Notes: generated from the sequence alone by a model not told the origin. Positions 1,662-45,125 are shown, counted from the first letter of the stretch. The stretch is DNA of 64,000 bases from a virus (IMGVR_UViG_3300045988_067909), one strand, 5' to 3'. A program made the numbers and translations.

Positions 1662-1667
1662 TTTTAC

Positions 1668-4561: not shown

Positions 4562-4577
4562 GAGGTGATAGTTAATT

Positions 4578-5780
4578 ATGGCAGATATAGAATTTAATAT
4601 GAATAACCGCTATAGATGGACTATCCCTGATATTCCATATGTAGTTAAGAAAGATAATAAAACAACAACTGAGATACCTAATAATGTAGATATAGCTTTT
4701 GATAGACACTTTGTGGATACTACAGTACGTGGATTAGTAGAATCCTATCAAACTTGTGTAGCTATATATGCTGAAATGAAACAGTTGTCATATAATCCAA
4801 CTGTAGATGCTAAGGGTAGAAACTATTGGGAATCTAGTACACCAAAGTATCAACAAAACCAAGAAGCTAATATAGATACAGATCACTCTAATAAGATGAA
4901 CTTTAACAATCCATCTTCTGGAGATCATTTACATCCATCTCGTATTGTAGATCTAAATCAACTATTATCTTCTAGTACACAGGTAGAGAGTAATACATTA
5001 GAGAATATATTAGACTTCTATGGTGTATATCATCCAAGTATTGGTGGTGGGTCTACTAATATAACTGAACGTATCGTTTTAAGTAATGATAATGCAGAGC
5101 CACCTAAGATGGAACTTGTAGATGCATTTAGAGATGCTAATGGTAATACTAAGTTCCCAGCTAGAACTGATGGTCAAAGTTATAATCAACCAATTAAACT
5201 AGAATGGTTTGCTAGACTTAGAGAGAATCTAATTAATACATCTAACTTCTTCATTAAGAATAATGGTAAGTTTTATGATGTAAATGGATATTGTGTTGTA
5301 GGATGTCAAGTAAACTGTCAGTCCACATGTCAATTGACTTGTCAACATAGACAATTGGGTGATGATTTCTTAAATAAAACATTCTTAGAGTGGAATGAAG
5401 ATCTACAAACTATATACAAACTAGGTTGGCAAACATATGACCACCCAGACCATGACCATAATGTATACATATTCTTCTATGACCCATGGGGTAGACGTTG
5501 GATGTATCGTAATACTAGATACTATGGAGATGGTTATTATCTATTACCAGATCAAAATGATATATACTCTATACGTCCTACACATCATGCGGATGATAAC
5601 ATGAATCTAGAGTGGTATCCTGGTGCGCCATATGATAACCCTAAACAATATCATTGGGAGATGGTACGTAATATACATACAGGTAAAAATGACTTGGTTA
5701 ATAAACTAGACCCACATTGGAATGATGCTGGTAATTACTATGTATCAGATGGTTATTGCCATAGCTGTGATAATAGATAG
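4578..5780 (+). CDS. 400-aa protein with internal Cys-Gln ladder CVVGCQVNCQSTCQLTCQ; putative rSAM substrate, paralog A
   Basis: Perfect RBS GGAGGTGATAGTTAATT-ATG. Ladder at nt 5292-5345. His/aromatic-rich C-terminal half (HPDHDHN, WYPGAP). Confidence 0.8.
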   Translation: MADIEFNMNNRYRWTIPDIPYVVKKDNKTTTEIPNNVDIAFDRHFVDTTVRGLVESYQTCVAIYAEMKQLSYNPTVDAKGRNYWESSTPKYQQNQEANIDTDHSNKMNFNNPSSGDHLHPSRIVDLNQLLSSSTQVESNTLENILDFYGVYHPSIGGGSTNITERIVLSNDNAEPPKMELVDAFRDANGNTKFPARTDGQSYNQPIKLEWFARLRENLINTSNFFIKNNGKFYDVNGYCVVGCQVNCQSTCQLTCQHRQLGDDFLNKTFLEWNEDLQTIYKLGWQTYDHPDHDHNVYIFFYDPWGRRWMYRNTRYYGDGYYLLPDQNDIYSIRPTHHADDNMNLEWYPGAPYDNPKQYHWEMVRNIHTGKNDLVNKLDPHWNDAGNYYVSDGYCHSCDNR

Positions 5781-5796
5781 GAGGTGATAGTTAATT

Positions 5797-6921
5797 ATGG
5801 CAGATATAGAATTTAATATGAACGATCGCTATAAATGGACTATCCCTGATATCCCATATATAGTGAAGAAAGATAACAAAATCACTACAGAAATCCCAGC
5901 TGATGTAGATATAGCTTTTGATAGACACTTTGTGGATACTACTGTACGTGGATTAGTAGAATCCTATCAAACTTGCGTAGCTATATATGCTGAGATGAGT
6001 CAGCTGGTATATAATCCACAAACCAACCGTCAAGGTAATAACTACTGGGATGGCAATAATAGATTTAGACAAAACCAAGAGAATAATGTAGACTTAGACC
6101 ATGCTAATAAGATGAACTTTACTAATCCACATAAAGAACCACATAGTTCAGGTACACGTATAGCAAATCTAAATTCTATACTCAATGATCCAGATGGTGT
6201 TAGAGAAGATAATCTAGAATCTATACTAGATTATTATAGAACCTATAATTCTGATACTAATGGTGGTATATCTGTAGACTTGTCTATGAATATATTAAAT
6301 AATGGATTAAAAGCAGAAGCACCAGCATATATACAAGTAGATGCATTTAGAGATGCTAATAGCAATACTAAATTCCCTGCTAGAACTGATGGTCAAAGCT
6401 ATAATCAACCTATAAAATTGGAATGGTTTGCTAGACTACGTGAGAATCTCATTAATACATCTAACTTCTTCATTAAGAATAATGGTAAGTTTTATGATAA
6501 TGGTGGTTTCTGTGTTATAGGTTGTCAGGTTAACTGTCAATCTACATGTCAATTGACCTGCCAGCATAGACAGCTAGGTGACGATTTCTTAAATTATACT
6601 AAGCTTGAACGTTATGAGCATGCTGAGATTATTAAGAAATTAGGTTGGCCAGACTTCCGTGGACGTAATGGTAATGAGTCATTAAACTATTATGACCCCT
6701 GGGGACGTATATGGCGTTGGTATGTATTTGCTAAACAAGGTTATGGTGCATACTATTTAGGTCATGAACCGCATGACAATTATTGGTATTTTGAAAATAA
6801 TATCGGTTGGTATCCTGGTGCTCCGTTTGATAGACCTGCTGGTGTAAACCCAGATGGTAGCATACCAACACCAAAACGTGATCCTGATTATGATCCTTGT
6901 GCTGGTTGTGAAAATAGATAG
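5797..6921 (+). CDS. 374-aa paralog B of the preceding gene, with Cys-Gln ladder CVIGCQVNCQSTCQLTCQ
   Basis: Identical RBS/leader sequence (ggaggtgatagttaattatggcagatatagaatttaatatgaa). N-terminal ~60 aa about 90% identical to paralog A. Ladder at nt 6511-6564. Divergent middle and C-terminal regions. Confidence 0.8.
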   Translation: MADIEFNMNDRYKWTIPDIPYIVKKDNKITTEIPADVDIAFDRHFVDTTVRGLVESYQTCVAIYAEMSQLVYNPQTNRQGNNYWDGNNRFRQNQENNVDLDHANKMNFTNPHKEPHSSGTRIANLNSILNDPDGVREDNLESILDYYRTYNSDTNGGISVDLSMNILNNGLKAEAPAYIQVDAFRDANSNTKFPARTDGQSYNQPIKLEWFARLRENLINTSNFFIKNNGKFYDNGGFCVIGCQVNCQSTCQLTCQHRQLGDDFLNYTKLERYEHAEIIKKLGWPDFRGRNGNESLNYYDPWGRIWRWYVFAKQGYGAYYLGHEPHDNYWYFENNIGWYPGAPFDRPAGVNPDGSIPTPKRDPDYDPCAGCENR

Positions 6922-6926
6922 AATAT

Positions 6927-7967
6927 ATGAATAACGATTATAAAGAAATATACCTAATGCTTACTGAGGCTTGCCCTAATAGATGTGAGTATTGTTATAT
7001 TAAGGGTAGAGATAACCCTAAGAGTATGACATTTGAACAGATTGAAGAAATAATACGTGTAGAAAAACCTACACGTATTATATTCTTTGGTGGTGAACCA
7101 TTGCTCAAGATAGATCTAATAGAGCAAGTATTAGAGAAGTATTATGGTAAGATTAAATTCCAAGTAGTCACATCTACTGTAGTTAATTTTAAAGAGTTTA
7201 TTGAATTAGATAAGAAGTATCCATTTAGTGAGATACAGTTATCATGGGATGGTTTCTCAGATAAGAACCGTGTTGATACTTGTGGTAATTCTATATCTAA
7301 GACAGTATATGACAATATCCAATATGCTATATCTCAAGGAACTAAGTTTGATGTAAAGTGTGTTATTGGTAATGAGAATATACAAATCTTTGATGAGATA
7401 CATGAGACTTTCGTAGAATGGAAGAAGAAGTATAATGTCAATGGTGAGTTTGTATTAGCACATAGACCATACTATGCACCAGAATATTTAGAGTTATTCC
7501 GTGAGAAGTATAAGAAGACATTCACTCTAGAGAGAATGTATATGGAACATATGAATCGTATTATAGCTATCTTACAAGATGATGATAACTTTGGTTCATG
7601 TGATGTCGGTAAGTATAAGGTTATTACACCATATGGTGAAGAATCTTACTGTACAGCATTATCTCAAGAAGAGACTGAGTTTGATAAGGATATCTTACAA
7701 GCACCATGTACATCTCCAGATTGTAAGATATGTAAATACAAATGTATTTGTGATGGTGGGTGTAGATATGAACGCTATGCTCAGTTTGGTGATAAGTGGA
7801 GAGAAAACCACTTAGATGCTACATGTCAAATGTCTGAAATCATATATACTACTATTAGAGAATGGATAGACTCTTTAGATGATGATGACTATGAAAAACT
7901 ATTAGCTTACGTTAGAAGCTATAAAGATCATTTAGAACGATACCATCAGGAGGTTACTCACGAATGA
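6927..7967 (+). CDS. radical SAM/SPASM enzyme 2
   Basis: CxxxCxxC (CPNRCEYC) at nt 6972-6995. 'FFGGEPL' motif. C-terminal CKICKYKCICDGGC fits the SPASM CxxCx5Cx3C. Confidence 0.8.
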   Translation: MNNDYKEIYLMLTEACPNRCEYCYIKGRDNPKSMTFEQIEEIIRVEKPTRIIFFGGEPLLKIDLIEQVLEKYYGKIKFQVVTSTVVNFKEFIELDKKYPFSEIQLSWDGFSDKNRVDTCGNSISKTVYDNIQYAISQGTKFDVKCVIGNENIQIFDEIHETFVEWKKKYNVNGEFVLAHRPYYAPEYLELFREKYKKTFTLERMYMEHMNRIIAILQDDDNFGSCDVGKYKVITPYGEESYCTALSQEETEFDKDILQAPCTSPDCKICKYKCICDGGCRYERYAQFGDKWRENHLDATCQMSEIIYTTIREWIDSLDDDDYEKLLAYVRSYKDHLERYHQEVTHE

Positions 7968-9214
7968 TTGACTTTTTACCTGAGCGTATATATAACGCTA
8001 TTAAAGAAGACCAAGAATATGAAAATATCTTAATGTATAGAGAGAATGAATTCCGTAAGCTAATTACGTTCAAAGAATTCTGTCTATATGATAACGTCTT
8101 CATTAAGAATAAAACAAAATGGGAATACTTTACTGGGACTTTACAGAGCCTGGTTAAAAAGTATTGTCCAGAATATATGACTGAACTAGATATTGCTATC
8201 TCTCCTAGGAAAACTAGAGCAGATTATCTCAATATCTACTACAATGATACTAAGATTGACTTTGAAACTAAGCTATTCGTATTATCTAAAATAGCTGATA
8301 TGTCTAAGTATAAAGATGATTACTTTAACTATCTTGGTATGTATTGTAACTTATATGAAAATATTGCTAAGTCTGATGCAGAGAAATACTCTGCTATCAT
8401 TCATTATACATATATACAATATGCTACATTAGCATATGCTAAGACATTGCCTAAAGATTCACAATGTATCTTTAAGATTAAGAAATATCTAGATACATTA
8501 CGTTTTGGATATGGTAATTTATCTGCTGATGCTTTAAACGTTATCTATATCAATACTTTTGTACAATGTATCACATTAGTTCTAGAAGAACTTGAGAATG
8601 ATATGTTAGTTAAAGAGATGCTAGATGATGTACAGTTACCAGAATCACTATTTGAAGTCCAATATGGTAACTATGGTATTACTAGATTAGCATTATGGTA
8701 TAAACTATTTGAGATTAATTTCTCAGTACGAGACTTTGCTAAATGTAAAGAGCTATTCAATAAGATGGTAGATTTAATTGATGGTAATCTTAAAGAACCA
8801 CAATTACTATTCCGTGGTTTATACGTATATAACCAAAATAATATTCCATATTTTTATGGGATATTAAGATTCGTATGTCGAATGCTCGGTGCATATGACC
8901 CAACTCTTACATTATCTAATCTCTCCGAAGAAGATAAACAATTTATCTCCATATATGATTGGGATTCTAGTGACCTATTGATTTCTGATAGACTTACTTC
9001 GGAGATATTCTATAACTATGCTCTTAGAACTAACTTATGGTTCTATAATTCTGCTGAAGCACTTAAAGCATATAAATATTTCGTTTATGAACAAGCTGGA
9101 TTAGAATTACCATCCGAAGATAGAATTCTTAAACCATTAGATGATTTCTTAAGTTCTTTCTTAGATGATGAACCAGCTGAAGAAGTTGTACCAAACCCTA
9201 AGGGTGATAAGTAA
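7964..9214 (+). CDS. hypothetical protein (416 aa), second partner gene in the rSAM operon
   Basis: ATG 7964 overlaps the upstream stop. RBS CAGGAGGT. No motif recognised. Confidence 0.7.
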   Translation: MIDFLPERIYNAIKEDQEYENILMYRENEFRKLITFKEFCLYDNVFIKNKTKWEYFTGTLQSLVKKYCPEYMTELDIAISPRKTRADYLNIYYNDTKIDFETKLFVLSKIADMSKYKDDYFNYLGMYCNLYENIAKSDAEKYSAIIHYTYIQYATLAYAKTLPKDSQCIFKIKKYLDTLRFGYGNLSADALNVIYINTFVQCITLVLEELENDMLVKEMLDDVQLPESLFEVQYGNYGITRLALWYKLFEINFSVRDFAKCKELFNKMVDLIDGNLKEPQLLFRGLYVYNQNNIPYFYGILRFVCRMLGAYDPTLTLSNLSEEDKQFISIYDWDSSDLLISDRLTSEIFYNYALRTNLWFYNSAEALKAYKYFVYEQAGLELPSEDRILKPLDDFLSSFLDDEPAEEVVPNPKGDK

Positions 9215-10392
9215 TGTATGATCGTATAGATGCGGTTACATTTAAGATATCTGAATATTGTAATCTAGACTGTGTATACTGTTTTCAAAAATATGATACT
9301 AAGACTAGATATGATGGGTTTACTGATTTTGATCAGCTAGTTAAGTTCTTAAGAAAGATGCCATTAGGGGATACTTTAGAATTCAAAGTTACTGGTGGAG
9401 AATCTAGTCTTCATTGTGATAAGATTAGAAGTGCTTATAGAAAGCTTAAGAAACTAGAGCGTTATAAGAACGTAAACATAGAGTTTACGACCATTTCTAA
9501 TGGCACCAATATAGATGGGTTGACAGAACTCTGGAATGATGGTATACTAAATCCATGGGGATGTAAGATATCCTGGGATGGGGTTTATAGTGCATCTAAA
9601 TCACGTAAAGTAAAAAATAATTCTTATGATGATGAGTATTTTAAAGATATCATTCGTAAGCTAGGTAAGTCTGACTATAGAGATAAAGTCTTAGTTAGAA
9701 CTGCTTTAACACCAGATACTGTAGACGAACTATATCAAGCATATAGATTTGCTATAGATAATGGCTGTACTAAATGGGAATATTATTTACTTAGTGATTG
9801 TGATGAATACAAAGATCCAAAGTTCATAGAGAGACTAAGACCACAACTATATCATATATACAATGATAGTAAAGACTTTCCTGAATCTATTGTAGCTAAT
9901 CTAGATTCTATGGCTTATGTACATACAGACTTATCTGATGCTACAAAGTTAAGATGTATTAGCTGTAGACATCTTGGTCATTTCTTGCATATAGATATAC
10001 ATGGTAATATATACCCTTGTGGATACTTCTCTGATGATTCCTATTATGATGACCAAACATTATCTATAGGGGACATTTACTCGGGTTTAGATAAATATAA
10101 ATTAGAGAAGTTTTGTGATGAGTATAATAATCTTCCCATGTGTAGCATACAAGATGGGTGTGAATGTTTACATTGTTTTGAATGTCCTGCTATTAGTCAC
10201 CTATACTACAACAATATGCAGTATAAGCTAGGACAACAATGTAAGATTAGACACTTAGAACTAGACTTGTATAGAGAGATATTCTCAGACTACACATTCG
10301 ATATGTCTCGTATACAAAGAAACTTTAATGTGTATAATGAACTTGAGTACCACAAGTGTGGATTATGTGAATCCCTTCCATTCAAAGAATAG
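9214..10392 (+). CDS. radical SAM enzyme 3 with a Cys-rich twitch/SPASM-like C-terminus
   Basis: TAATG overlap start. CxxxCxxC (CNLDCVYC) at nt 9259-9282. 'VTGGESS' motif. C-terminal CISCRH...PCGY...CSIQDGCECLHCFECP cysteine cluster. Confidence 0.8.
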   Translation: MYDRIDAVTFKISEYCNLDCVYCFQKYDTKTRYDGFTDFDQLVKFLRKMPLGDTLEFKVTGGESSLHCDKIRSAYRKLKKLERYKNVNIEFTTISNGTNIDGLTELWNDGILNPWGCKISWDGVYSASKSRKVKNNSYDDEYFKDIIRKLGKSDYRDKVLVRTALTPDTVDELYQAYRFAIDNGCTKWEYYLLSDCDEYKDPKFIERLRPQLYHIYNDSKDFPESIVANLDSMAYVHTDLSDATKLRCISCRHLGHFLHIDIHGNIYPCGYFSDDSYYDDQTLSIGDIYSGLDKYKLEKFCDEYNNLPMCSIQDGCECLHCFECPAISHLYYNNMQYKLGQQCKIRHLELDLYREIFSDYTFDMSRIQRNFNVYNELEYHKCGLCESLPFKE

Positions 10393-18315: not shown

Positions 18316-18333
18316 TTAGTTAATAAAAATTTT

Positions 18334-18349
18334 GGTTGTATAATATAAC
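18334..18349 (+). promoter_or_regulatory. promoter-like motif copy GGTTGTATAATATAAC followed by a 5'-UTR hairpin (aggaatgtgtattagctaagcacattcct)
   Basis: Motif family member upstream of the first adhesin gene. Perfect 9-bp stem at about 18351-18379. Confidence 0.5.
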
Positions 18350-18500
18350 TAGGAATGTGTATTAGCTAAGCACATTCCTTAGTATATTATGCAAATTTAC
18401 AGTTTAGCTAATTAAATCCAAGGAGGGATATAAAATCCTATAATACGCTCAAAATATTTTAAATTTAAGAATTCTAATTGTGTAAAGAAAGAGGTTTATT

Positions 18501-20282
18501 ATGAAAAAAGTTATTTTGACAGCAATGGTTATTGGCTCTTTGAGCCTAAATGTAATGGCAATTGATAACGCTACTGGGTCTGGTAGTGGTATCGCTTATG
18601 GTACAGGAAGTAGTGCTAATGGTACACATGATGTATCCATTGGTGTATCTTCTAAAGCCGAAAACTACACAAACCAAAATGGTTCGATAGCTATTGGTCA
18701 TAAAGCTCATACTGAACTTATGGCTGGTGGTGTTGAAGCAGCATTTGGTTTTGGTCAAACTACATATAGTGGGAGCGAATTCTCATCTGCACGTGTCCCA
18801 GCTGACCCATCTAAAGTTATTGGTGCAGTAGCTATTGGTAACAATACATATGCTCGTACAGGTTCTACTATGGTTGGTTCTCATAACTACCATGGTGAAA
18901 TTGGTGATGTTACCATTAATACAGATAAAGATGAAACAGGCACTAGAAGCCAAGCATTAAATGTATATGCAACTAATATTGGTGCAAATAGCTTCAGTAA
19001 TGGTGCTTTAACTACATCTACTGGTGCTTATAATATTATTTCTAGTTCCTATACTGGTGGTAGATTCTCTACACCATCTCAAAATCTAGGTGCTACTATT
19101 ACAGGTGCTATGAATAGTATTGAATCTAAAACTGCACAAGGTATTGGCTCTGGTTGGTTTGCTGATAGAACTGGTGTTGGTGTAGCTAATACTATTAATG
19201 GTCTAGCAAATAGAACTGCCAATACTAATGGCACTATTGTATTTGGTGCTGGTAATGAAGTCACAAATTCTATTGCAGAATTGACTGGTATTCCAAAAAA
19301 TACTGGTAACTCTGCTAAAGAGTTTGCTGGTAAACTAAGAGATGGTATCTCTAAGTCTAATGGTGGTGGTGCTACTATGGTAATTGGTGGTGGTAATAAA
19401 GCCGATTACACATTACGCACTTCTATGATTGGTGTAAATAACACAGTTACTGGTACGTCTGGAAATGAAAGCACAGACAACTTTGTAGTTGGTGTAAACA
19501 ATAATGCATCTAATGTATCTAATGCAATTATTGTTGGTAATAACCATAATGTAGCTAATGCAACACATACAGTTATTATTGGTTCTAGTGATAATGCTAC
19601 AAGCACAGTAGTAAATGATGCTGTAGCTATTGGTCATAATACAGAAGTATCTTACGTTGGTGGTGTAGCTCTTGGTGCACAATCTAAAGCTACAGTAAAT
19701 TCTGGTGTAGCTGGATATGATGTAGTAACTAAGACACAATCTACAAACAATAGCCCTGTATGGACTTCTACAGCTTCTGCTGTATCTGTTGGTGATGTAG
19801 ATAATAATGTGACTCGTCAAATCACATCTGTATCCGCAGGTACTAATGATACTGATGCAGTTAACGTTGCACAACTTAAACAATTAGACAGCAAAATCGA
19901 TACTGGTGTGTCTGATGTATTAAATCGTGCAAATAACTATACTGACACTCAAGTATCCAAAGTTGGTGCTAGAGCAGCAGCATTATCTGGATTACATTAT
20001 GTAGACTATAACCCTAACGATAAATGGAGCTTTGCTGCATCTTTAGGTGGTTATAAAGGTTCTACTGCTGGAGCTATTGGAGTCGCTTATCAACCAAATG
20101 AAAGCACTCTTATCCATGCAGGTGTAACTTTAACAGATAGTCCAATGTACAATATTGGTGCATCTTTCAAAGTAGGTAAACAAGATCCTACATTGAAAAC
20201 TAGCCGTATTGAAATGGCACAACAAATCAAAGATTTACAAGAGCAACTTGCTGAAATCAAAGCAGCTCTTGCAAATAAATAA
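18501..20282 (+). CDS. YadA-like trimeric autotransporter adhesin (593 aa) with signal peptide, head repeats, neck (DAVNVAQLK) and C-terminal beta-barrel anchor plus a short coiled-coil tail
   Basis: Signal peptide MKKVILTAMVIGSLSLNVMA. Repeated SIGxxS/AIGxN head motifs. NVAQLK neck at nt 19852-19878. Anchor VGARAAALSGLHY...GASFKVG at about nt 19962-20178. Confidence 0.8.
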   Translation: MKKVILTAMVIGSLSLNVMAIDNATGSGSGIAYGTGSSANGTHDVSIGVSSKAENYTNQNGSIAIGHKAHTELMAGGVEAAFGFGQTTYSGSEFSSARVPADPSKVIGAVAIGNNTYARTGSTMVGSHNYHGEIGDVTINTDKDETGTRSQALNVYATNIGANSFSNGALTTSTGAYNIISSSYTGGRFSTPSQNLGATITGAMNSIESKTAQGIGSGWFADRTGVGVANTINGLANRTANTNGTIVFGAGNEVTNSIAELTGIPKNTGNSAKEFAGKLRDGISKSNGGGATMVIGGGNKADYTLRTSMIGVNNTVTGTSGNESTDNFVVGVNNNASNVSNAIIVGNNHNVANATHTVIIGSSDNATSTVVNDAVAIGHNTEVSYVGGVALGAQSKATVNSGVAGYDVVTKTQSTNNSPVWTSTASAVSVGDVDNNVTRQITSVSAGTNDTDAVNVAQLKQLDSKIDTGVSDVLNRANNYTDTQVSKVGARAAALSGLHYVDYNPNDKWSFAASLGGYKGSTAGAIGVAYQPNESTLIHAGVTLTDSPMYNIGASFKVGKQDPTLKTSRIEMAQQIKDLQEQLAEIKAALANK

Positions 20283-20294
20283 TTCTACCATGTA

Positions 20295-20333
20295 TATGGC
20301 ATAGTATTGACGGTACTATGCCATACTTTTTTA
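20295..20333 (+). terminator. intrinsic terminator (tatggcatagtattgacggtactatgccata + TTTTTT)
   Basis: 11-bp stem followed by a T-run. Confidence 0.65.
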
Positions 20334-20359
20334 GCATATAGTTAAAAGGAGACATTCAA

Positions 20360-23077
20360 ATGATGAACAACAAAGTTATTTTAACAGCAGCAATTTTAGG
20401 TACTTTGGTATCCGGTTCTGTATTTGCACAAGGATCTAATACTGGATACAATAATGTATCTAATGGAGATTATGGAACAGTATTTGGTAGTAATAATACT
20501 AATGAAACAGGTGCCACAAGTTCATTAGCTTTTGGTGATGGAAATGTTGTAAAACAAGCAAACTCTATGGCTTTTGGCCAAGGTAACTTATCCGACGGCG
20601 AAAATAGTTTCGTCGGCGGTGATAAAGCTAAAGCTGTAGGTCGTGATACATTTGCGTTCGGCTCTTCTGCAGAAGCTCTAACTGAGTATACCATTGCCAT
20701 TGGTTCTCAAGCTAGAACTATTGGCTATAACACTTTGGCTATTGGTAATGGTGCTACAGTATCTGGTCCATCCTCTATTGCTATTGGTAAAACAAACAAT
20801 GTTACAGGTGAAAATTCTGTAGCTATTGGTGCTAATAATGGCACTATTAAAGGTGAACAAGCTGTAGTAGTTGGTTATAATAATAATATGACTACTGCTG
20901 ATCAAGAGCAATTGATCTTTGGTTCTAATTCTGTCACTAGTGGCCAAGGTTCTATCGTTGTAGGTACTCATGGTCAAGCTACTGCTGTTGATGCTGTTGC
21001 ATTAGGTAATAATACTATTGCTGACGTTCAAAATGGCGTCGCAATCGGCACAAATTCTGTAACAGAATCAGCTGTTGGTACATCCAATATTAAGGATAAT
21101 ACAACAGACATCCGTTTCAGTAATTCCACTTATGCAGGTTCCACACCTGATAGTGTTGTAAGCTTTGGTGCTAATGGTCGTGCTGGTGCTGGTGGTGTAA
21201 CTAGCTATACACGTCAGCTACAAAATGTAGCAGCAGGTCGTGTATCTTCCACATCTACAGATGCTATTAATGGTAGCCAATTGTACGATGTTGCTCTTGA
21301 AGCACAAAAGTACAATACTATGGCTGATGGATCCAATACTACAGTAGTAGCTACCGATAACGCTTACGGAAGAAAAGAATTCAAAGTAAACGTTAATAAG
21401 GATTTGGTAGACATGAACTCTGCAGCATTTGGAAAGAATACAGATAGCAAACATACAGTAGTTAATACTGATGGTACTATTGTATTTGATGGTGATAAAG
21501 ATACTAAGTATAGCGGTAACGGTTTAACTATCGAAGACCGTAATACTTTGGATGCTGCATCCTATAATATTAATGGTATGACAGCTTCTGATGCTAATGG
21601 TACAGTAAGCTTCACTACAACTAATATTGATGCTGGCAATAACCAAATTCACAACGTTAAAGCTGGTACAGCTGATACAGATGCGGTTAATGTTGATCAA
21701 ATGAATAAAGCTATCGAAGCCAATAAAGCAGTTGAATCCGTGGTTGCCGACAATCAAGTCGACAATATCGCAGCAGTACGTGTAACAAATGGCAAATCCA
21801 CTGGTGATGCAAATGCACAATATGGTGTATATGTATCCCGTTCTACTGTGGATGCTATTGCCAAGGCTTCTAACCGTTTTGCAGGAGACGACGTTATTAA
21901 TGTTACTCGTTGGGATGCTCCTGCTAATGTAGCAGATCTTACTACATTCAAATACAACGGCGAAAAAGCCGCAACTAAAACTCCATTGACTTACAAAGCT
22001 AATGGTAAAGATGCTAAACAAGTTATGCTTGCTAATGGCTTAGACTTCACTAATGGTAAAAACACTACAGCTACTACAGATGCTAATGGCGTAGTTAAAT
22101 ACTCTGTGAATGATAACTTGAATGGTATGAAATCCGTTAACTTCGATGGTGGTACTACAGTGAACAATGATGGCTTAACTATTAACAATGGCCCATCTGT
22201 AACTAAAGATGGTATTGATGCTGGTAATAAAACGATTACTAATGTAGCTCCTGGTCGTGTAGAAGCGGGTTCTACTGATGCAATTAACGGTAGCCAATTG
22301 AATGACGCAGCTCAACGTATTAGCAACCGTTATGATGCAGCTATTGCTAATAACCAACGTGAAATCAGTAAAGTAGGTGCTCGTGCAGCAGCTATGGCTA
22401 ACTTACATTATCAAGACTTCAATGCTGATGATAAATGGAGCTTCGCTGCAGGTTATGGTCATTATAAAGGTCAAAATGCTGGTGCATTAGGTGTAGCATA
22501 TCAACCAAATGAAAATACTATGATTAGTGTATCTTCCACTATTGGTAAAGATGCTATGATTGGTGCTGGTGTATCCATGAAGTTTGGTAAAGCATCTAAG
22601 ATGAATGCTAATAAACAAGTAGCTATGGCTAAAGAAATTCAAGAACTTCGTGCAATCGTAGCAGCTCAAAATGCTAAGATCGATGCATTAGTCGATCATG
22701 CTATGGGACGTAACGAAGCAATTACTGATGTAGTATTCCCTGATGTACCTGAAAATCATTGGGCATATATGATGGTACAAGACCTTGCTTACAAAGGTAT
22801 TGTAGTTGGTTATCCAGATAATAATTTCTCTGGTGACCGCACTCTAACTCGCTATGAATTTGCTGTAGCATTAGACCGTGCTATTTCTGCTGGTTATATG
22901 AATCCAGAATTGGGTCGTGCTATTAAAGAATTCAAACCTGAATTAGACAGCATCTATGCTAATATGCGTTTCCGTGTAGATCGTGAATCTGGTAAAGATG
23001 GTAGTGTAAATAAAGTTGAACGTGTACGTGTTAATAAAGACAGTGCTCGTGATAACTATGGCACTATCGTAAAATAA
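20360..23077 (+). CDS. trimeric autotransporter adhesin (905 aa) with an extra C-terminal periplasmic coiled coil and an SLH (S-layer homology) domain
   Basis: Signal peptide MMNNKVILTAAILGTLVSGSVFAQG. YadA-type head repeats. Neck DAVNVDQMN. Anchor VGARAAAMANLHY...VSMKFG at about nt 22372-22590. SLH motif FPDVPENHWAYMMVQDLAYKGIVVGYPDNNFSGDRTLTRYEFAVALDRAI at about nt 22735-22887. Confidence 0.8.
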   Translation: MMNNKVILTAAILGTLVSGSVFAQGSNTGYNNVSNGDYGTVFGSNNTNETGATSSLAFGDGNVVKQANSMAFGQGNLSDGENSFVGGDKAKAVGRDTFAFGSSAEALTEYTIAIGSQARTIGYNTLAIGNGATVSGPSSIAIGKTNNVTGENSVAIGANNGTIKGEQAVVVGYNNNMTTADQEQLIFGSNSVTSGQGSIVVGTHGQATAVDAVALGNNTIADVQNGVAIGTNSVTESAVGTSNIKDNTTDIRFSNSTYAGSTPDSVVSFGANGRAGAGGVTSYTRQLQNVAAGRVSSTSTDAINGSQLYDVALEAQKYNTMADGSNTTVVATDNAYGRKEFKVNVNKDLVDMNSAAFGKNTDSKHTVVNTDGTIVFDGDKDTKYSGNGLTIEDRNTLDAASYNINGMTASDANGTVSFTTTNIDAGNNQIHNVKAGTADTDAVNVDQMNKAIEANKAVESVVADNQVDNIAAVRVTNGKSTGDANAQYGVYVSRSTVDAIAKASNRFAGDDVINVTRWDAPANVADLTTFKYNGEKAATKTPLTYKANGKDAKQVMLANGLDFTNGKNTTATTDANGVVKYSVNDNLNGMKSVNFDGGTTVNNDGLTINNGPSVTKDGIDAGNKTITNVAPGRVEAGSTDAINGSQLNDAAQRISNRYDAAIANNQREISKVGARAAAMANLHYQDFNADDKWSFAAGYGHYKGQNAGALGVAYQPNENTMISVSSTIGKDAMIGAGVSMKFGKASKMNANKQVAMAKEIQELRAIVAAQNAKIDALVDHAMGRNEAITDVVFPDVPENHWAYMMVQDLAYKGIVVGYPDNNFSGDRTLTRYEFAVALDRAISAGYMNPELGRAIKEFKPELDSIYANMRFRVDRESGKDGSVNKVERVRVNKDSARDNYGTIVK

Positions 23078-23091
23078 TCTAATTATAAGAA

Positions 23092-23140
23092 AAGAAGTTC
23101 TACAAGGGTCAATGACCCTTGTAGACTATTTTCTTTTTTC
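23092..23140 (+). terminator. intrinsic terminator aagaagttctacaagggtcaatgacccttgtagactattttctttttt
   Basis: 10-bp stem plus T-run. An identical ~48-bp copy sits at 23609-23662. Confidence 0.7.
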
Positions 23141-23188
23141 TATGATACTGAGGATATATCTAGTATTTCGTAAAACTGTTTTTTTTTT

Positions 23189-23204
23189 AGTTGTATACTA
23201 TAAT
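23189..23204 (+). promoter_or_regulatory. promoter-like motif copy AGTTGTATACTATAAT
   Basis: Preceded by a T9 run. 49 nt upstream of ATG 23253. Confidence 0.55.
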
Positions 23205-23252
23205 GGTAATATCATGGTTATATTTAGTTATTGAAGAAAAGGAGAATATATC

Positions 23253-23606
23253 ATGAACACAACAAAAATTGAAAAATTCGAAACCATTTCTGGATTTGTT
23301 GATTACCATATTAAACCGGCAAATTGGGCCCACACAGAACGGGAGCAATGGTGGTACGAGTTCGAAAACGGACTTTCTGCCTCTGTAGTTAGAGGCAGTA
23401 CTACCCTTGGTGGTAGAAATGGCTTATTCGAAGTAGGGATCTTGATTATGGACTCCTGCTACGGAGGTACACCATTATCTTCGGATGGGGTAATAGGTTA
23501 CCTCACTGAGGATGAGGTTGTATCCACGCTTAACCGTATCTCTAGATTGGTTGAAAACCCAAATGCCCATGGGTATATAGATCCAGAGGATCTAGAAGAT
23601 AAATAA
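23253..23606 (+). CDS. hypothetical protein (117 aa); noticeably GC-richer than its surroundings
   Basis: RBS AAAGGAGAA. Composition shift visible (ccggcaaattgggcccacacagaacgggagc...). Confidence 0.7.
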   Translation: MNTTKIEKFETISGFVDYHIKPANWAHTEREQWWYEFENGLSASVVRGSTTLGGRNGLFEVGILIMDSCYGGTPLSSDGVIGYLTEDEVVSTLNRISRLVENPNAHGYIDPEDLEDK

Positions 23607-23608
23607 AT

Positions 23609-23662
23609 AAGAAGTTCTACAAGGGTCAATGACCCTTGTAGACTATTTTCTTTTTTTTTTGT
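23609..23662 (+). terminator. second identical copy of the ctacaagggtcaatgacccttgtag terminator
   Basis: Exact repeat of 23092-23140, with a longer T-run. Confidence 0.7.
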
Positions 23663-23677
23663 AAAAATAGAAATTTT

Positions 23678-23693
23678 AGTTATATATTATAAT
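23678..23693 (+). promoter_or_regulatory. promoter-like motif copy AGTTATATATTATAAT
   Basis: 40 nt upstream of ATG 23733. Confidence 0.5.
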
Positions 23694-23732
23694 CGTGACC
23701 AATGGTTAGGTTTATTTATAAGGAGGTATTTT

Positions 23733-24311
23733 ATGCTTATACTAACTAAGGTTAAAGCGATTATAATTATATTCGCAACCCTTCAAAATGTAGTATTTGG
23801 ATTCACATCCCCTACAATCCAAATCTACTTTATGAGTTTGGTAGATGCCAGTACTCTAAGCATTGCCAACCTATTGGATGCTGGGTTGGCAGGCACCATT
23901 AATAGTTTCCTGAGTAAAAATTCTTTCAGGAAACTATTTAAGAAGTATGCCCCTATAGTTGGGCTTATCGATGCAGTAGTCTATGCTGCAATCGTGTTAT
24001 TTTCGGTGGACGATCCTACTATAAGGTTTATAGGGATCGCCATCTGTAATGGCACGTTAAATACTATTTGGGGAGTTATGCTGTTGGATAGTATTAATAA
24101 TGCTATCCGAGGGGATGACTTAACTTCCTTTAATAGTTTGAATAAGTCCTGTAATCTATTCGGTTCCCTTATCGGATCAGGTATAGGCTTTTTAATTGGT
24201 AGCTCGTTGGATATAAATACAGCTATCATTCTACAAGCTATCATTGTCGGAGTTAACTCTGTATCCGAGCTATACGCATTCTATAAATTAGATAAAATTG
24301 AAGAATCGTAA
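23733..24311 (+). CDS. polytopic membrane protein (192 aa, about 4-5 hydrophobic segments)
   Basis: RBS TAAGGAGGT. Hydrophobic throughout. GC-richer than neighbours. Confidence 0.7.
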   Translation: MLILTKVKAIIIIFATLQNVVFGFTSPTIQIYFMSLVDASTLSIANLLDAGLAGTINSFLSKNSFRKLFKKYAPIVGLIDAVVYAAIVLFSVDDPTIRFIGIAICNGTLNTIWGVMLLDSINNAIRGDDLTSFNSLNKSCNLFGSLIGSGIGFLIGSSLDINTAIILQAIIVGVNSVSELYAFYKLDKIEES

Positions 24312-24347: not shown

Positions 24348-24476
24348 GATGATAATTATCATCGATTGAAGAATATAGTTATATTCAAGGACCTCTAGGA
24401 GTTAGAGTGATAGATACAATAGTATCTTGATCTTTAACTTCTAGGGGTCCTTGAACACTATATCTTTTTTCTTTTG
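24348..24476 (+). ncRNA. candidate ~130-nt small RNA: motif promoter, then 16-bp palindrome, then a long hairpin (arms ttcaaggacctctag 24384-24398 and ctaggggtccttgaa 24441-24455), then a T-run; no ORF
   Basis: Promoter-like motif and terminator bracket a non-coding stretch. Could equally be a 5' attenuator of the downstream gene. Confidence 0.3.
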
Positions 24477-26740: not shown

Positions 26741-28285
26741 ATGGAAGAAAGAAAATTAAACATGAATATCCGTCTTCATCATTCACCAAATGAATCATGG
26801 AAGACAACTATGGAGATTCTAGATTTAGATAAGCTTCGTATCGAGGGTATATCTAAAGGTAGAGACTTTATCATTTCTGAACCACAAACTGTAAAGAAAG
26901 ATTTAAAGTCAGATTCTTCCATCTTCTCTAGTAAATATGGAGCATCTATATCTGATGATAAAGATGCTTATAAGGATAGATATCGTTGTGAATGTGGTCA
27001 CTATACTGGTAGACTATATAATAACGAAATCTGTCCTTACTGTAATACTAAGGTCAAATATGTAGACGATGACCTTAATATTACTGGTTGGGTTGTATTA
27101 CAAGAGCATGTAATCATCCACCCTAACTTATTTAAGAACCTAGAGAAATTAATCACTCCAGCCGTTCTTAAAGACATCTTGACTCTAGATGTAGAGCTAG
27201 ATGAAAATGGATTCGAAGTATCTAAAGTAAATGAGAAAGTCAGAAAAGAATCTGGTGAGTATCATGGTATTGGTATGATAGAATTCTGTAAAAGAATAGA
27301 TGAGATTATGGAATACTTTGCTCGTAAGAACAAGTCCAAGAAAGATAAGATAGCTAACTATGAGTTGCTACTAAAATATAGGGACAGATTACTTACACAT
27401 TCTATTCCAGTATATTCTCTATTCTTACGTATGGTTAATCTCCAAGGGGATAAGTTCTCCTTTAAAGGAGCTAATGCTATTTACAATAATATCGCTAAAT
27501 ATGCAGCATTAGTAAATGGCAACCGTACAGTAATCCAAGCAAGAGATCAATTTAAAGATGAGGCTCTCTTGAATATTCAATATCTATATGCTGGGTCTAA
27601 TGATTCTTTGTATGATTCTGTCATTGAAGAATTAGCACATAAGAAAGGTGCCATTCAATCTGCATTAGCTGGACGGTATAACTTTACTGGTCGTAATGTA
27701 ATCATTCCAGATGCTACATTACGTATTGATGAGATTAAGCTTCCATATAACTCATTACTAGTTCTATTGGAACAAACTATCATCAATATCCTAGCTAGAT
27801 CTTATAATATCACTTATAGCGATGCTCATAAGAAGTGGTGGAAAGCCCAAACTTATGTAGATCCAGTTATATTAGATATCATCAAAGGTATCATTAAGTC
27901 TTACCCTCGAGGTATTCCATTCATCATCAATCGTAACCCAACTATCAACTATGGTTCTGTGTTACAAATGTATTGTATTGATGTATTGGTAGATTCATTC
28001 ACTATGAGAGTTCCATTACAGGTATTACCTGGTATGAATGCGGACTTTGACGGTGACTGCTTGAATATCACTTATCTTATTAATAAGGAATTCGTAGCTA
28101 GATGTGAAGAGTCTTTGAATCCTAGAAATACTATGATGATTTCTAAGAACAATGGGCGATTCAATTCATTCATGAACTACTTCAAGGATACTATTGTAAA
28201 CTTGAATAGTTTCTGTAATCTAGGTTTCGATACTTATACTAAAGATGAGATAGATGATATCAAAGCTCTAATGGAGGGTAGATAA
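26741..28285 (+). CDS. multisubunit RNA polymerase beta-prime subunit, N-terminal fragment (through the catalytic NADFDGD loop); split phage-encoded RNAP
   Basis: RBS TAGGAGGAG. Beta-prime zinc ribbon RYRCECGHYTGRLYNNEICPYCNTKV (nt 26987-27043; E. coli [25 protein letters not shown]). GMNADFDGDCLN (nt 28037-28057), then NPRNTMMISKNNG matching E. coli MMSTNNILSPANG. The ORF stops about 50 aa after the active site, as in split jumbo-phage RNAPs. Confidence 0.8.
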   Translation: MEERKLNMNIRLHHSPNESWKTTMEILDLDKLRIEGISKGRDFIISEPQTVKKDLKSDSSIFSSKYGASISDDKDAYKDRYRCECGHYTGRLYNNEICPYCNTKVKYVDDDLNITGWVVLQEHVIIHPNLFKNLEKLITPAVLKDILTLDVELDENGFEVSKVNEKVRKESGEYHGIGMIEFCKRIDEIMEYFARKNKSKKDKIANYELLLKYRDRLLTHSIPVYSLFLRMVNLQGDKFSFKGANAIYNNIAKYAALVNGNRTVIQARDQFKDEALLNIQYLYAGSNDSLYDSVIEELAHKKGAIQSALAGRYNFTGRNVIIPDATLRIDEIKLPYNSLLVLLEQTIINILARSYNITYSDAHKKWWKAQTYVDPVILDIIKGIIKSYPRGIPFIINRNPTINYGSVLQMYCIDVLVDSFTMRVPLQVLPGMNADFDGDCLNITYLINKEFVARCEESLNPRNTMMISKNNGRFNSFMNYFKDTIVNLNSFCNLGFDTYTKDEIDDIKALMEGR

Positions 28286-32030: not shown

Positions 32031-32090
32031 TACGGTGGTGTAGGTGTATGCCACCGTATTACTCCATTGTTATACCTGTTTTATTTTTTA
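32031..32090. terminator. probable bidirectional terminator between convergent genes (atacggtggtgtaggtgtatgccaccgtat hairpin, T-rich flanks)
   Basis: 9-bp stem. Sits between convergent 3' ends. Confidence 0.4.
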
Positions 32091-35000
32091 TACAGTTTCG
32101 AATATAACAGGGTCAACGAAACCGACATAAGCTTTAGGATTCTTAGCTTGCATAAATTCAGCTTTACGTAAGAAGTCTAATGTAACATTAAACCCTTTAA
32201 AGATATTACGCATACTAGTATTACCTGTAGCTGTTTTTACTATATTAGCTACACGTTCTACTTCTATACCTGTAGGGTTTTGTGCTTGAACTATATTAGC
32301 AGAAGATGATAAGTATTCATTAGACCAAGGCCCCATAACCTGATATCTACTATTAGTAAAGTATACAGCAATCTTTAAGTTATAGCCAGGGTTCTTTTGG
32401 AACTCTTGTGCTAAGACTTTATTGATACGTGCTAGGTATGTATTAACAGGGCGTAGTGAAGCACGTTTAATAGATACATTAGTACCATTACGGTTATATT
32501 GCACTCTAGAATCATTATTAGCTTCAGCATAGTTATTGACTATGAACGCTACAGATTCATTTTCAGCTAGTTTACTATAGTATCTTGTAATGAAGCTAGT
32601 AATATAGTTGACATTGTTATTCAAGTCATCAATATTATCTAGATAGATTACATATTGTTTATGGTTAGTATCAGACTTTCTATTTACAAATAGATTCATA
32701 GGAGATTGTCCAATACTAATACTAGTCGGAACAGTAACACTATCATCTAAGAATTGATTATAGAAGTGGAGAATGCCCTTAAAGTGTGGTATAAGTGTAA
32801 CTTGATTACAATCTGGATATGTATATTGACCCTCACGTAGAGAATGTGCTGTATCATTAGGATTTAAGAATTTAGTTAACCCATTACGGATACCATCTCT
32901 GTAGAATCTAGCATACATAATATCAGAACTATGCATAAAGAAATCATAGACTACACCCTTCTTATAAAGCTTAGTACTAAACTTAGATTTCCAATCATCA
33001 GAGCCTGGTTCATTAGTATAGTCTAAGTTAGGCTTAAACATTTCAGGAACTGCCACATATGTATTTCTACCAATACCTGATAAGCATTCATCACCATTAC
33101 CATTAAACAATAACGGATTATTATAATGGAAGTATGTATGTAAGAACGTACCAACACCAATCTCTTGGATATTCTTATACCCTTTATCGTCCGTATAACG
33201 CATAGATAGGTTATCCATTACTGGTTCAAACGTATTGATTTGGTTTACACCATAGTTTCTGGCTACACGTATACGATTATACTCATTAGCGTTATTACCT
33301 AATGCTACATAATTGCTAGAACTATTTAATGCTAAAGACTCTTCAGCTAATAAACAGTTTGAGATATTAGCATTATATACGTAATCACCAGTATGATACA
33401 TAAATTTACCAGGACCATTCTTAGGTTCTGCTATATAACTAGCATCAGTATCCCCAGATTGTTTGAATAATACATCTGGTAATACTGCATTACTTGTAAT
33501 ATTATTATTTGTACCAGGAACTGTATTACTACCAATGATATAGTTTATAGATGTAGAGTTATTAGGGCTAATAAATCCTTTGGTGTAACTACCATCAGAT
33601 GAGAATGTGATATTATAGTTAAGTCTTTGAATATCTGTAATTGTATTTATTAATAATGCACCATAGATAGGATGTCTAATAGCTGGATCATCAGGTATAA
33701 ATTTACGTATTTCTATATATAGCGTTTGGTAATTCATTGTAGATAATAACCACCCAGAGATATAGTCATATGTAGTTTTATCTATTAATGGAATCCAGAA
33801 TTTCTCATTATTAGCACCAGTATATTCTATATAGCATATACGATATCTATAGTCACTGCCAGGTCTGGAATTATTGGTTGTTGGAATCTTATAGAACCCA
33901 ACAGGGTTACCTGTAACTTTAAATATACAATCTGTCGTTATAGGGTCAGTTATAGTTTTATTTATTGAAGAATCAGGTATATTATATATATTAGCTGCTG
34001 ATGCGGCATTTAATTCACGACCACAAATGAATGTGATATTATCTTCATTCCTAAATAAGTCATTCATAGTACCGGCTGGTGCAGTTGTCCATAATGCTAA
34101 ACCACCGGCAACTTCAGTGAAGTATATATCCTGAGGATATGTACCATTATTTATGCCAGTTCGTACTCCTAGACATTCTCTATATATACTTTCTACAGTG
34201 TCACGACTGTTTGTCTGGGCAATACCACTATCATCTAGATCTGTATAATCTAATAAGAATAATCCAACATCCTTAGATCCTGTAGCCATATAGTTAGCCC
34301 AAACAGATTTAGTTATATTCGCTAATTCTTGTGGACTTACATTTAATACATTACGCAAATAGTCACTATCTACGATATAAACAGCCATACTTCTATTATC
34401 TATATTGATATCACGTAACTTAGCTATAGTATCTTTGAAGTGTTCCATATAAGATTTACCTGCAGGAGCATCAGATCGTCTTAGTATGTACTTAAATGCT
34501 GGTGCATTAAATCTGACGGATACATCAGAGCTTATATTTGTAGGTCTAGGTTCTACTGAGTTTGTATATTTTACTGCATTTACGTAGTCATCTATAAGTA
34601 AGATATAGCCCCATAGCATATTATCGATCAATGTTTGCCGACGATACATGTAGATACGACCATAGGTATTATTGATAGCATTAAACAAATTATATTGACC
34701 AATACCATATAAATCGTATGGTACAGCATTACAGTTACTAGCAGATTCAGTTACAGTACATTTAATAACTGGAGAATCTTGGAACAAATTCAATGCTACA
34801 CGGTTATGTTCTGTTTTACCAACTACCATTTCACAATGAGATGCATCTAATAATGGTGTAGTGAAATCGGAGAAGTATCTTGATTTCAAGTTTACTATTT
34901 TATTAGTAGTATCTATATCTGTTACATTTATAGGATTAGCTTTATAGAAGAACTCATTATTATCTCTTGTAGGATTAGCGTTAGGTATTCGCTTACCAGC

Positions 35001-37922: not shown

Positions 37923-37934
37923 AGTTTATCCTTT

Positions 37935-40652: not shown

Positions 40653-40663
40653 ATTAGTCCACC

Positions 40664-43444: not shown

Positions 43445-43462
43445 TTATATACCTCCTGGAAG

Positions 43463-45073: not shown

Positions 45074-45125
45074 ATAGTAACCTCCTTTTAAAAGTCGTCA
45101 AATTATATAAATGTTAAAGTACACC

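Follow-up and report, generated by a model that had tools for sequence, protein, structure and literature searches.

Trimeric autotransporter adhesins of the Negativicutes type in a variable cargo slot of a jumbo phage

Two adjacent genes in a 64,000-nucleotide stretch of viral DNA (IMGVR_UViG_3300045988_067909; hereafter the window) encode trimeric autotransporter adhesins (TAAs), designated TAA-1 (593 amino acids, aa) and TAA-2 (905 aa). Both genes lie within a jumbo phage genome of ~256 to 272 kb that encodes its own multisubunit RNA polymerase (RNAP). The two TAAs are probably conserved cargo of this non-integrating phage, which would be displayed early in infection on the surface of a Negativicute host, with a pay-off in adhesion or biofilm formation. 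The evidence consists of the architecture of the proteins, their phage context, the variability of the locus, purifying selection on both genes and the recurrence of TAAs in other large phages.

Both open reading frames (ORFs) were recovered exactly where a first-pass annotation of the window had placed them. Pfam searches located YadA_anchor (PF03895), the four-stranded C-terminal barrel, above the gathering score in both proteins and the S-layer homology (SLH) domain (PF00395) in TAA-2. All TAA-2 matches exceeded the gathering score (three to YadA_head, three to YadA_stalk and one each to YadA_anchor and SLH). Its head resembled the UspA1 and YadA head structures, and its neck motifs read DAVNVDQMNKA and DAINGSQL. 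As had been proposed for the 905-aa protein, the polypeptide continued past the barrel, with a 163-aa tail composed of a coiled coil and an SLH domain containing HWAY and TRYE. Residues 783 to 897 matched three solved structures (8BYS, 8BYM and 8BZ2; E = 2e-10) that were deposited as S-layer homology domain-containing proteins and that we take to be OmpM.

The expected NVAQLK-type neck was likewise present in TAA-1 (DAVNVAQLKQL), where residues 345 to 481 matched head and neck structures of AtaA and YadA and residues 479 to 557 matched the YadA anchor. Anchor structures of YadA and Hia also matched the TAA anchors. The YadA-like heads claimed for both proteins held for TAA-2 and not for TAA-1: YadA_head was negative on TAA-1 even at E <= 1, the structural matches to its head and neck were confined to residues 345 to 481, and its GxxN repeats were irregular. 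The N-terminal 340 aa of TAA-1 are therefore best described as a predicted atypical head; a single-sequence AlphaFold2 model of the passenger gave a pLDDT of 33. The first-pass annotation had overlooked that TAA-1 also extends beyond its barrel. Its tail (KVGKQDPTLKTSRIEMAQQIKDLQEQLAEIKAALANK, 37 aa) was assigned as a coiled coil from its 3-4-3-4 hydrophobic spacing and was homologous to the tails of Veillonella TAAs.

The N termini of both proteins were read heuristically, from their n-h-c organization and AxA-type cleavage sites, as the Sec-type signal peptides that had been proposed. In TAA-1 the sequence was MKKVILTAMVIGSLSLNVMA/IDN, with cleavage at VMA/I and a maximum 12-aa hydropathy of 2.2, and in TAA-2 it was MMNNKVILTAAILGTLVSGSVFA/QGS, with cleavage at VFA/Q and a maximum of 2.6. 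Taken together, anchor, signal peptide and head, neck and stalk modules confirmed the prediction that both proteins are complete TAAs (type Vc). In NCBIfam they matched only parts of EmaA, Ata, BimA and YadA, far under the full-length cut-offs, which identifies them as TAAs yet as orthologs of no named TAA. Their best matches were bacterial adhesins and not the tail fibers that would have spoken against an adhesin.

The tails behind the barrels point to a particular group of bacteria. A survey of all TAAs found an SLH-type periplasmic domain only in Negativicutes (bioRxiv 10.64898/2026.01.22.700529), and an SLH domain after the TAA barrel has been reported only for this group elsewhere as well (PMC7549365), in agreement with the view of the first-pass annotation that the architecture is characteristic of Negativicutes. 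Short coiled-coil tails typify the TAAs of Terrabacteria (bioRxiv 10.64898/2026.01.22.700529). In Veillonella parvula, deletion of either the SLH or the coiled-coil extension lowers TAA stability (bioRxiv 10.64898/2026.01.22.700529; PMC7549365), and SLH function is mediated by WAY and TRYE motifs (bioRxiv 10.64898/2026.01.22.700529), both of which occur in TAA-2. TAA-1 thus has the short (<100 aa) coiled-coil extension of Negativicutes-type TAAs and TAA-2 the long extension of that type, while their genes reside on a jumbo phage and not in a Negativicutes genome. Both are homologous to, and predicted to work like, the Negativicutes-type family, but they are phage genes.

Bacterial relatives were sought in GTDB, with one genome per species. 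Full-length matches to the neck-anchor-coiled-coil-SLH module of TAA-2 were obtained only in Megasphaera, Dialister and Veillonella (39 to 49% identity), and among them only two Veillonella loci aligned to the very last residue. In its last 150 aa, TAA-1 shared 56 to 57% of residues with Veillonella TAAs (from Veillonella sp., V. atypica and V. tobetsuensis). G+C content at third codon positions (GC3) was 0.15 to 0.21 in the phage TAA genes, similar to the 0.20 to 0.34 of Veillonella TAA regions and unlike the 0.50 to 0.63 of Megasphaera and Dialister. On these sequence comparisons, confidence is high that the host is a Negativicute, i.e., a diderm Firmicute, and moderate that it is Veillonella. 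The Negativicutes host proposed in the first-pass annotation is thereby supported, the closest bacterial relatives found being those of Veillonella, Megasphaera and Dialister.

The exact TAA-2 protein and more than 100 variants of it (96 to 98% identity) were found on metagenomic contigs. The longest of these contigs clustered at 256 to 272 kb and had identical local synteny and different start points, which indicates a complete, free-standing jumbo phage genome. Phage genes flanked the TAA pair on both sides; those recognized in the window encode three radical-SAM proteins, a split RNAP β′ subunit, a virion protein and DnaB-like and Dda-like helicases. The locus is thus phage DNA with the same synteny on many ~260-kb contigs, and the prophage boundary with flanking host DNA that would have undermined the first-pass annotation was not present there. 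The RNAP β′ subunit shared ~29% identity with its counterparts in phiR1-37, a Yersinia phage, and in the Bacillus phages BpSp and Goe21 and the AR9-type jumbo phages; the nearest isolates are phiR1-37 and AR9-like phages with multisubunit RNAPs. No tRNA was found in the window. When 50,697 deposited phage genomes were searched with the locus by blastn, there was no match, and tblastn of TAA-2 against the same genomes returned only a Salmonella enterica genome contig and an Acinetobacter phage in which the similarity was limited to the stalk. None of these genomes, including the AR9/PBS1/phiR1-37 group, contained a comparable TAA.

Relatives of the locus were retrieved by using the 97 to 100% conserved RNAP gene as an anchor. 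Wherever the DNA retrieved from a relative reached the left border, a homolog of the 123-aa protein encoded there preceded the first TAA gene, and the right border was formed by the gene for a predicted membrane protein of 192 aa to which no family could be assigned. Between these two genes, one or two TAAs of 652 to 1342 aa were encoded. Some phages carried TAA-1 together with a TAA-2 of 713, 904/905 or 1028 aa, some a single SLH-type TAA of 1027, 1036, 1196 or 1229 aa, and some an SLH-type TAA of 904 or 1342 aa followed by a 711-aa GH66 enzyme; in one relative (L007), the SLH domain had been neatly deleted from a 652-aa TAA. At least one intact TAA with signal peptide and anchor was present in every relative whose DNA covered the slot. 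Across the variants, identity was 87 to 99% in the coiled-coil-plus-SLH module, 65 to 100% in the anchor, 32 to 95% in the head and 37 to 98% in the stalk. Head and stalk combinations were mosaic, and the periplasmic module was conserved. The locus is a hypervariable cargo slot, a property that the first-pass annotation had missed.

The GH66 gene lay directly downstream of the TAA gene in two relatives (L072, positions 5347 to 7482; L074, positions 4703 to 6838), in the slot that corresponds to window positions 18316 to 23732. Its product matched Pfam PF13199 (E = 7e-108). A match to structure 3VMN, the dextranase of Streptococcus mutans (E = 1e-173), extended over 630 aa at roughly 50% identity; no signal peptide was evident. 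It is a putative streptococcal-type plaque-glucan hydrolase of the dextranase type in a putative Veillonella phage. Downstream of TAA-2 in the window, a 117-aa ORF was bracketed by identical 27-nt terminator hairpins (23099-23125 and 23616-23642). It matched phrog_4074, whose function is unknown, and was present in some and absent from other near-identical phages. In a phage lineage that is not related (L111, L112 and L026), a homolog with 35 to 37% identity likewise came after the TAA gene. The ORF may represent a small mobile cassette, or its product may act together with the TAAs.

Several of the retrieved contigs had been assigned to bacteria. L007 (CALISH010000016.1) comes from a "Solobacterium" metagenome-assembled genome (MAG) and is syntenic with the window, with an RNAP subunit of 99% identity; L026 (USNF01000015.1), from a "Gemella" MAG, encodes a TAA that shares 97% identity with its counterpart on L112, a viral contig of 234 kb; and L013, from an "Aggregatibacter segnis" MAG, carries an SLH-type TAA. 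The Solobacterium and Gemella contigs are, by their synteny and identity, phage fragments misbinned into bacterial MAGs, and through such misbinning TAAs can be wrongly reported from monoderm genera.

Between phage genomes, the ratio of nonsynonymous to synonymous substitution rates (dN/dS) was 0.06 to 0.08 for TAA-1 and 0.08 to 0.16 for TAA-2, indicating clear purifying selection on both genes; that of the RNAP gene was 0.01 to 0.03. Between clades, the synonymous divergence (dS) of TAA-2 was 0.24, lower than the 0.54 to 1.8 of neighboring genes, which indicates recombinational exchange. Total GC content of the TAA genes was 0.37 to 0.39, compared with a phage mean of 0.33, whereas their GC3 was at or below the phage mean of 0.246. 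The excess lies at codon positions 1 and 2 and reflects amino acid composition. Recent capture from the host was considered and rejected, since GC3 was phage-like or lower.

TAAs also recurred in several other phage lineages, which the first-pass annotation had not recorded. A scan of IMG/VR with the C-terminal modules of the window TAAs detected them on other large viral contigs (159 to 236 kb, GC 25 to 31%) that represent at least four further lineages (L101, L103-L119, L133-L135 and L144, some of them fragments). These contigs encoded one or two TAAs of 375 to 797 aa with signal peptide, anchor and a coiled-coil tail of ~35 to 40 aa, next to genes for a phage RNA ligase/kinase, DNA polymerase, helicase and glucosyltransferase. 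The promoter motif described below was absent from them, and their flanks had no further protein similarity to the window. Along its entire length, TAA-1 had 52% identity to a TAA of 609 aa from the L133-L135 lineage, and phrog_10464 matched TAA-1 as well as the TAAs of L101 and L116, in each case from stalk to anchor. The head and first stalk of TAA-2 (residues 2 to 470) were 51% identical to those of a coiled-coil-tailed TAA (L104 and L105) and 55% identical to those of the SLH-tailed TAA of L144. In comparison, the passengers of the bacterial TAAs sampled, a set biased by its selection through C-terminal patterns, were only 30 to 37% identical to those of the window. With that bias in the bacterial sample, the comparison suggests a phage-resident, recombining pool of TAAs.

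The TAA genes are preceded by an expression signal that is common in this phage. The motif GTTRYATAHTATAA had 11 matches on the + strand, against 3.1 expected, and 0 of 100 shuffles reached 11. The copies that could be placed against the gene calls were intergenic, and in most cases a terminator hairpin came directly before the motif and a gene or operon after it. The early promoter of AR9, AAATATATATTAT-N6-G, is read by the injected virion RNAP (PMC5312081), and the AT-rich GTTRYATAHTATAA motif resembles it. Variants of the motif were retained upstream of the first TAA gene in relatives, and a hairpin of different sequence occupied the same leader position (in L073, a 20-bp stem; z = -6.9). 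By eye, similar hairpins were seen after other copies of the motif. The first-pass annotation had credited the adhesins with a promoter of their own; as the motif and hairpin recur before at least eight other transcription units, both are generic to early-type transcripts of the phage and not adhesin specific. The terminators and the 5′ hairpin that it had also described were real (z = -4.3 to -6.6 against shuffles). The whole 161-nt leader was not significantly structured (z = -1.75), only the local hairpin being significant, and Rfam found nothing above threshold in leader or locus. With one mismatch allowed, the short motif GTTGTATAMT was not enriched (30 matches versus 25), in contrast to the longer motif derived from intergenic regions. 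Sigma-70-like sites were fewer than expected by chance (17 versus 25), and a host-type promoter was dropped as the principal explanation.

No promoter motif was found between the terminator-like hairpin that follows TAA-1 and the start of TAA-2, and transcription of TAA-2 would thus depend on read-through. In L071 and L072, which lack TAA-1, the leader corresponds to that of the window minus the TAA-1 ORF, and the 20295-20325 hairpin is kept there with compensatory changes, between the promoter and the only TAA gene. This hairpin is a possible attenuator. Further upstream, the leader contains a strong Shine-Dalgarno-like element, CCAAGGAGGG (18419-18446), with no start codon after it and ~70 nt upstream of the real ribosome-binding site; a similar element occurs in the diverged relatives L069 and L073-L075. 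Stabilizers of the STAB-SD type are known from Firmicutes mRNAs, and the element might be one of these or the leftover of a lost gene. The palindromic terminator loop core GTCAATGAC occurred on the + strand at 15951, 23108, 23625 and 31272 (4 matches versus 0.42 expected; 0 of 100 shuffles reached 4), each time directly upstream of a promoter motif. It could be a phage-specific termination or protein-binding signal and is offered as a candidate.

Beyond the architecture, phage context, purifying selection, variability and recurrence, which were observed directly, we infer a mechanism from the established biology of TAAs (Sec and the β-barrel assembly machinery, BAM) and from experiments in V. 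parvula (bioRxiv 10.64898/2026.01.22.700529). Soon after infection, the operon would be transcribed from the early-type phage promoter. The pre-proteins would cross the inner membrane through the host Sec system, trimerize and be inserted into the outer membrane by the host BAM, with head and stalk predicted to be exposed. In the periplasm, the coiled coil of TAA-1 and the coiled coil and peptidoglycan-binding SLH domain of TAA-2 would stabilize the proteins as in Veillonella's own adhesins. The infected cell would thereby acquire phage-specified adhesive fibers and a remodeled surface. The likeliest pay-off may be that the infected cell is held or clumped within a biofilm rich in hosts; as the virion is large and diffuses slowly, its progeny would then be released beside new hosts. 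Tethering or aggregation is favored because the heads are common to several phage lineages, a dextranase occupies the same slot and VtaG, an SLH-type TAA of 576 aa, increases biofilm formation when overexpressed in V. parvula (bioRxiv 10.64898/2026.01.22.700529). The reading of the locus as host-adhesion cargo in the first-pass annotation is supported, and the adaptive pay-off is uncertain.

Several observations weigh against this explanation. Among the SLH-type TAAs of V. parvula, a function is known for VtaG only, and no measurable gain in anchoring came from the SLH domain (bioRxiv 10.64898/2026.01.22.700529). Early timing would follow solely from the likeness of the motif to the early promoter of AR9, and an adhesion pay-off and a role as a surface shield would look alike in the sequence. 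TAA-2 lies behind a strong terminator-like hairpin and has no promoter motif of its own, and the position of that hairpin in L071 and L072 implies that expression may be low or conditional. Over the SLH module, moreover, the TAAs of Megasphaera and Dialister are as similar as those of Veillonella, which makes the assignment to a genus indirect.

A wider version of the adhesion hypothesis is possible but distinctly less likely. According to it, large phages of oral diderm Firmicutes would share a recombining pool of adhesins, joined in some by the dextranase, with which they reprogram the position of the infected cell in plaque or tongue biofilm. Early adhesins would keep the cell attached or clumped in the company of hosts and streptococcal partners. 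Lacking a signal peptide, the matrix enzyme would leave the cell only when it lyses and would then set the virions free. If this were true, adhesion would be a phage-controlled trait of the infected cell.

The main rival to an adhesive function, though an unlikely one, is a surface shield or superinfection exclusion. The fibers would coat the infected cell and its debris and block outer membrane receptors, so that competing phages are kept out and progeny are not wasted on fragments of lysed cells, as with Llp of T5. The early-type promoter would suit the timing of an exclusion gene, and the wide variation in length among close relatives (713 to 1342 aa, in the stalk) resembles the outcome of an arms race. 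Compared with the ~3000-aa adhesins of Veillonella (bioRxiv 10.64898/2026.01.22.700529), the phage TAAs are short and would form an inner layer. However, a biofilm theme accords better with the presence of a dextranase in this slot, and the conservation of the heads, which phage lineages have in common at 51 to 55% identity, suggests a specific ligand rather than bulk. To our knowledge, an exclusion function has not been described for any TAA, which also counts against a shield.

The first-pass annotation had offered lysogenic conversion as one explanation, in which a resident phage, integrated or in a carrier state, expresses the adhesins and the surviving host gains colonization factors. The operon is indeed bracketed by a promoter and terminators, phages of the PBS1/AR9 type are known for pseudolysogeny, and the Eib proteins of Escherichia coli are a reported precedent for TAAs on prophages. 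However, neither an integrase nor a repressor was detected in the 64-kb window of the ~260-kb genome, and no integrated copy was seen among the contigs, which were free-standing, of constant length and with varied start points. The promoter is the phage-wide early motif of a multisubunit-RNAP jumbo phage, and sigma-70-like sites were not enriched. Morons are expected in temperate phages behind an autonomous promoter of host type; in the 64 of ~260 kb inspected, the locus had neither property. Lysogenic conversion is not supported by these results, and the scenario as a whole, carrier state included, is improbable.

That the TAAs are fibers or receptor-binding proteins of the virion itself is very improbable. 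TAAs and phage fibers are both trimers built from β-helix and coiled coil, and the window proteins have weak matches to PHROGs of unknown function. However, Sec signal peptides, a membrane β-barrel and periplasmic tails make no sense in a virion assembled in the cytoplasm; tail fibers lack signal and anchor and are encoded in a structural module, whereas the TAA genes belong to a + strand early-type block, and the sole PHROG virion-protein match and the largest ORFs lie in a - strand block. The best matches, as noted above, were bacterial adhesins. Least credible of all is an inert hitch-hiker, host DNA or an assembly chimera, for which the total GC content above the phage mean might be cited, but the excess is confined to codon positions 1 and 2 with phage-like or lower GC3, many samples yielded the locus in independent assemblies, dN/dS values fall well short of 1 and the ORFs are intact in all relatives.

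Table 1. Positions of the adhesin genes, their predicted domains, expression signals and neighboring genes in the 64,000-nucleotide window
Feature	Position	Strand	Details
Left border gene, conserved, 123 aa	17944..18315	+	homologs with 60-100% identity
Early-type promoter motif GTTGTATAATATAA before TAA-1	18335..18348	+	
5′ leader hairpin, directly after motif	18348..18383	+	-15.1 kcal/mol, z = -4.3
TAA-1 gene, 593 aa	18501..20282	+	ORF at the annotated position
TAA-1 signal peptide, residues 1-20	18501-18560	+	n-h-c organization, AxA-type site
TAA-1 YadA_stalk/neck, residues 440-481	19818-19943	+	Pfam, above gathering score
TAA-1 YadA_anchor, residues 502-556	20004-20168	+	PF03895, 33.5 bits (cut-off 22.7)
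TAA-1 periplasmic coiled-coil tail, residues 557-593	20169-20279	+	37 aa, heptad pattern
Terminator-like hairpin and T-run between TAA-1 and TAA-2	20295..20332 (hairpin 20295-20325)	+	14-bp stem, -17.4 kcal/mol, z = -5.3
TAA-2 gene, 905 aa	20360..23077	+	ORF at the annotated position
TAA-2 signal peptide, residues 1-23	20360-20428	+	n-h-c organization, AxA-type site
TAA-2 YadA head, residues 40-240	20477-21079	+	~13 repeats, 14-residue spacing
TAA-2 necks and stalk	between head and anchor	+	YadA_stalk, three matches
TAA-2 YadA_anchor, residues 688-742	22421-22585	+	PF03895, 40.5 bits (cut-off 22.7)
TAA-2 periplasmic coiled coil, residues 743-792	22586-22735	+	
TAA-2 SLH, residues 793-835	22736-22864	+	PF00395, 34.5 bits (cut-off 20.8)
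TAA-2 C-terminal tail	from SLH to residue 905	+	
Terminator hairpin and T-rich tail after TAA-2	23096..23135 (hairpin 23096-23127)	+	-19.9 kcal/mol, z = -6.6
Accessory cassette	23190..23642	+	promoter motif 23190-23203, 117-aa ORF 23253-23606, terminator repeat 23616-23642
Right border gene, 192-aa predicted membrane protein	23733..24311	+	85-100% identical in most relatives
Split RNAP β′ subunit	26741-28285		phrog_2987 and precomputed PF00623 match

Elsewhere in the window, three radical-SAM proteins (phrog_1802) are encoded at 309-1661, 6927-7967 and 9214-10392 in a + strand block (309-10392), interleaved with five ORFs without an informative family match, and this block could be a modification or peptide-maturation cluster. 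A - strand block at 32088-50468 contains very large ORFs of 1944, 905, 926, 536 and 1766 aa, for which no Pfam match and almost no PHROG match was obtained; presumably, their products belong to the virion or to a virion RNAP, in a lineage that has been sampled poorly. Pfam gave almost no matches for the large - strand ORFs and the other ORFs of the window. Between a promoter motif at 24327 and the next gene at 24581, a long, nearly perfect hairpin occupies positions 24384-24457. Its match to mir-1270 was rejected (29 bits against a gathering score of 90) as almost certainly due to chance, the hairpin itself being real.

Non-integrating jumbo phages carry complete outer membrane adhesins as conserved cargo under selection, and such adhesins recur in several lineages of large phages, whereas phage-borne adhesins have so far been discussed mainly as conversion factors of prophages. 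In the literature searched, TAAs were described neither for jumbo phages nor for phages of the virulent type, no phage-borne SLH-tailed TAA was reported, and nothing relevant was found on Veillonella jumbo phages. The findings raise the question of whether lytic phages manipulate the adhesion or aggregation of infected cells in biofilms, for which genetics and adhesin assays exist in V. parvula SKV38. In addition, the SLH tail offers a sequence-based host assignment for a ~260-kb jumbo phage that has been assembled repeatedly from metagenomes and to which none of the deposited phage genomes searched is closely related.

Among known phages, those of the AR9/PBS1/phiR1-37 group resemble the window phage in their split RNAP β′ subunit (~29% identity), AT-rich promoter motif and genome of ~250 to 262 kb, and differ from it in the lack of a comparable TAA in their deposited genomes. 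Proteins through which phages alter the surface or adhesion of their host include the prophage morons Lom and Bor of lambda, the lipoprotein receptor blocker Llp of T5 and the tail proteins PblA/PblB of Streptococcus mitis phage SM1; they have this concept in common with the window TAAs but belong to different protein families. As Sandt and Hill are said to have described in 2000/2001, Eib immunoglobulin-binding TAAs of Escherichia coli are encoded on lambdoid prophages. Reportedly, these act as lysogenic conversion factors, reside on temperate phages of Proteobacteria and end without a periplasmic extension, unlike the Negativicutes-type TAAs of the jumbo phage. The resemblance to them seen here is a generic one of stalk and anchor by way of phrog_10464, a family that might contain Eib-like proteins.

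The closest parallels are found in the envelope of the presumed host. The SLH region of TAA-2 is homologous to that of the protein that we presume to be OmpM. In the host envelope, the SLH region of OmpM is a peptidoglycan-binding module (bioRxiv 10.64898/2026.01.22.700529). OmpM, the outer membrane tether of diderm Firmicutes, has a porin-type barrel and an N-terminal SLH domain, whereas the SLH domain of TAA-2 follows a four-stranded TAA anchor. TAA-1 is like VtaA, VtaE and VtaF of V. parvula in having a coiled coil after the anchor, which those proteins need for their stability (bioRxiv 10.64898/2026.01.22.700529), and differs from these ~3000-aa adhesins in its length of 593 aa, its atypical head and its location on a phage. 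TAA-2 has the complete layout of the SLH-type TAAs VtaG and VtaH of V. parvula, i.e., signal peptide, head, neck/stalk, anchor, coiled coil and an SLH domain with WAY and TRYE. Unlike them, it is encoded in a jumbo phage behind a phage promoter, with a passenger only 30 to 37% identical to those of bacterial TAAs and a head that it has in common with the TAAs of other phages.

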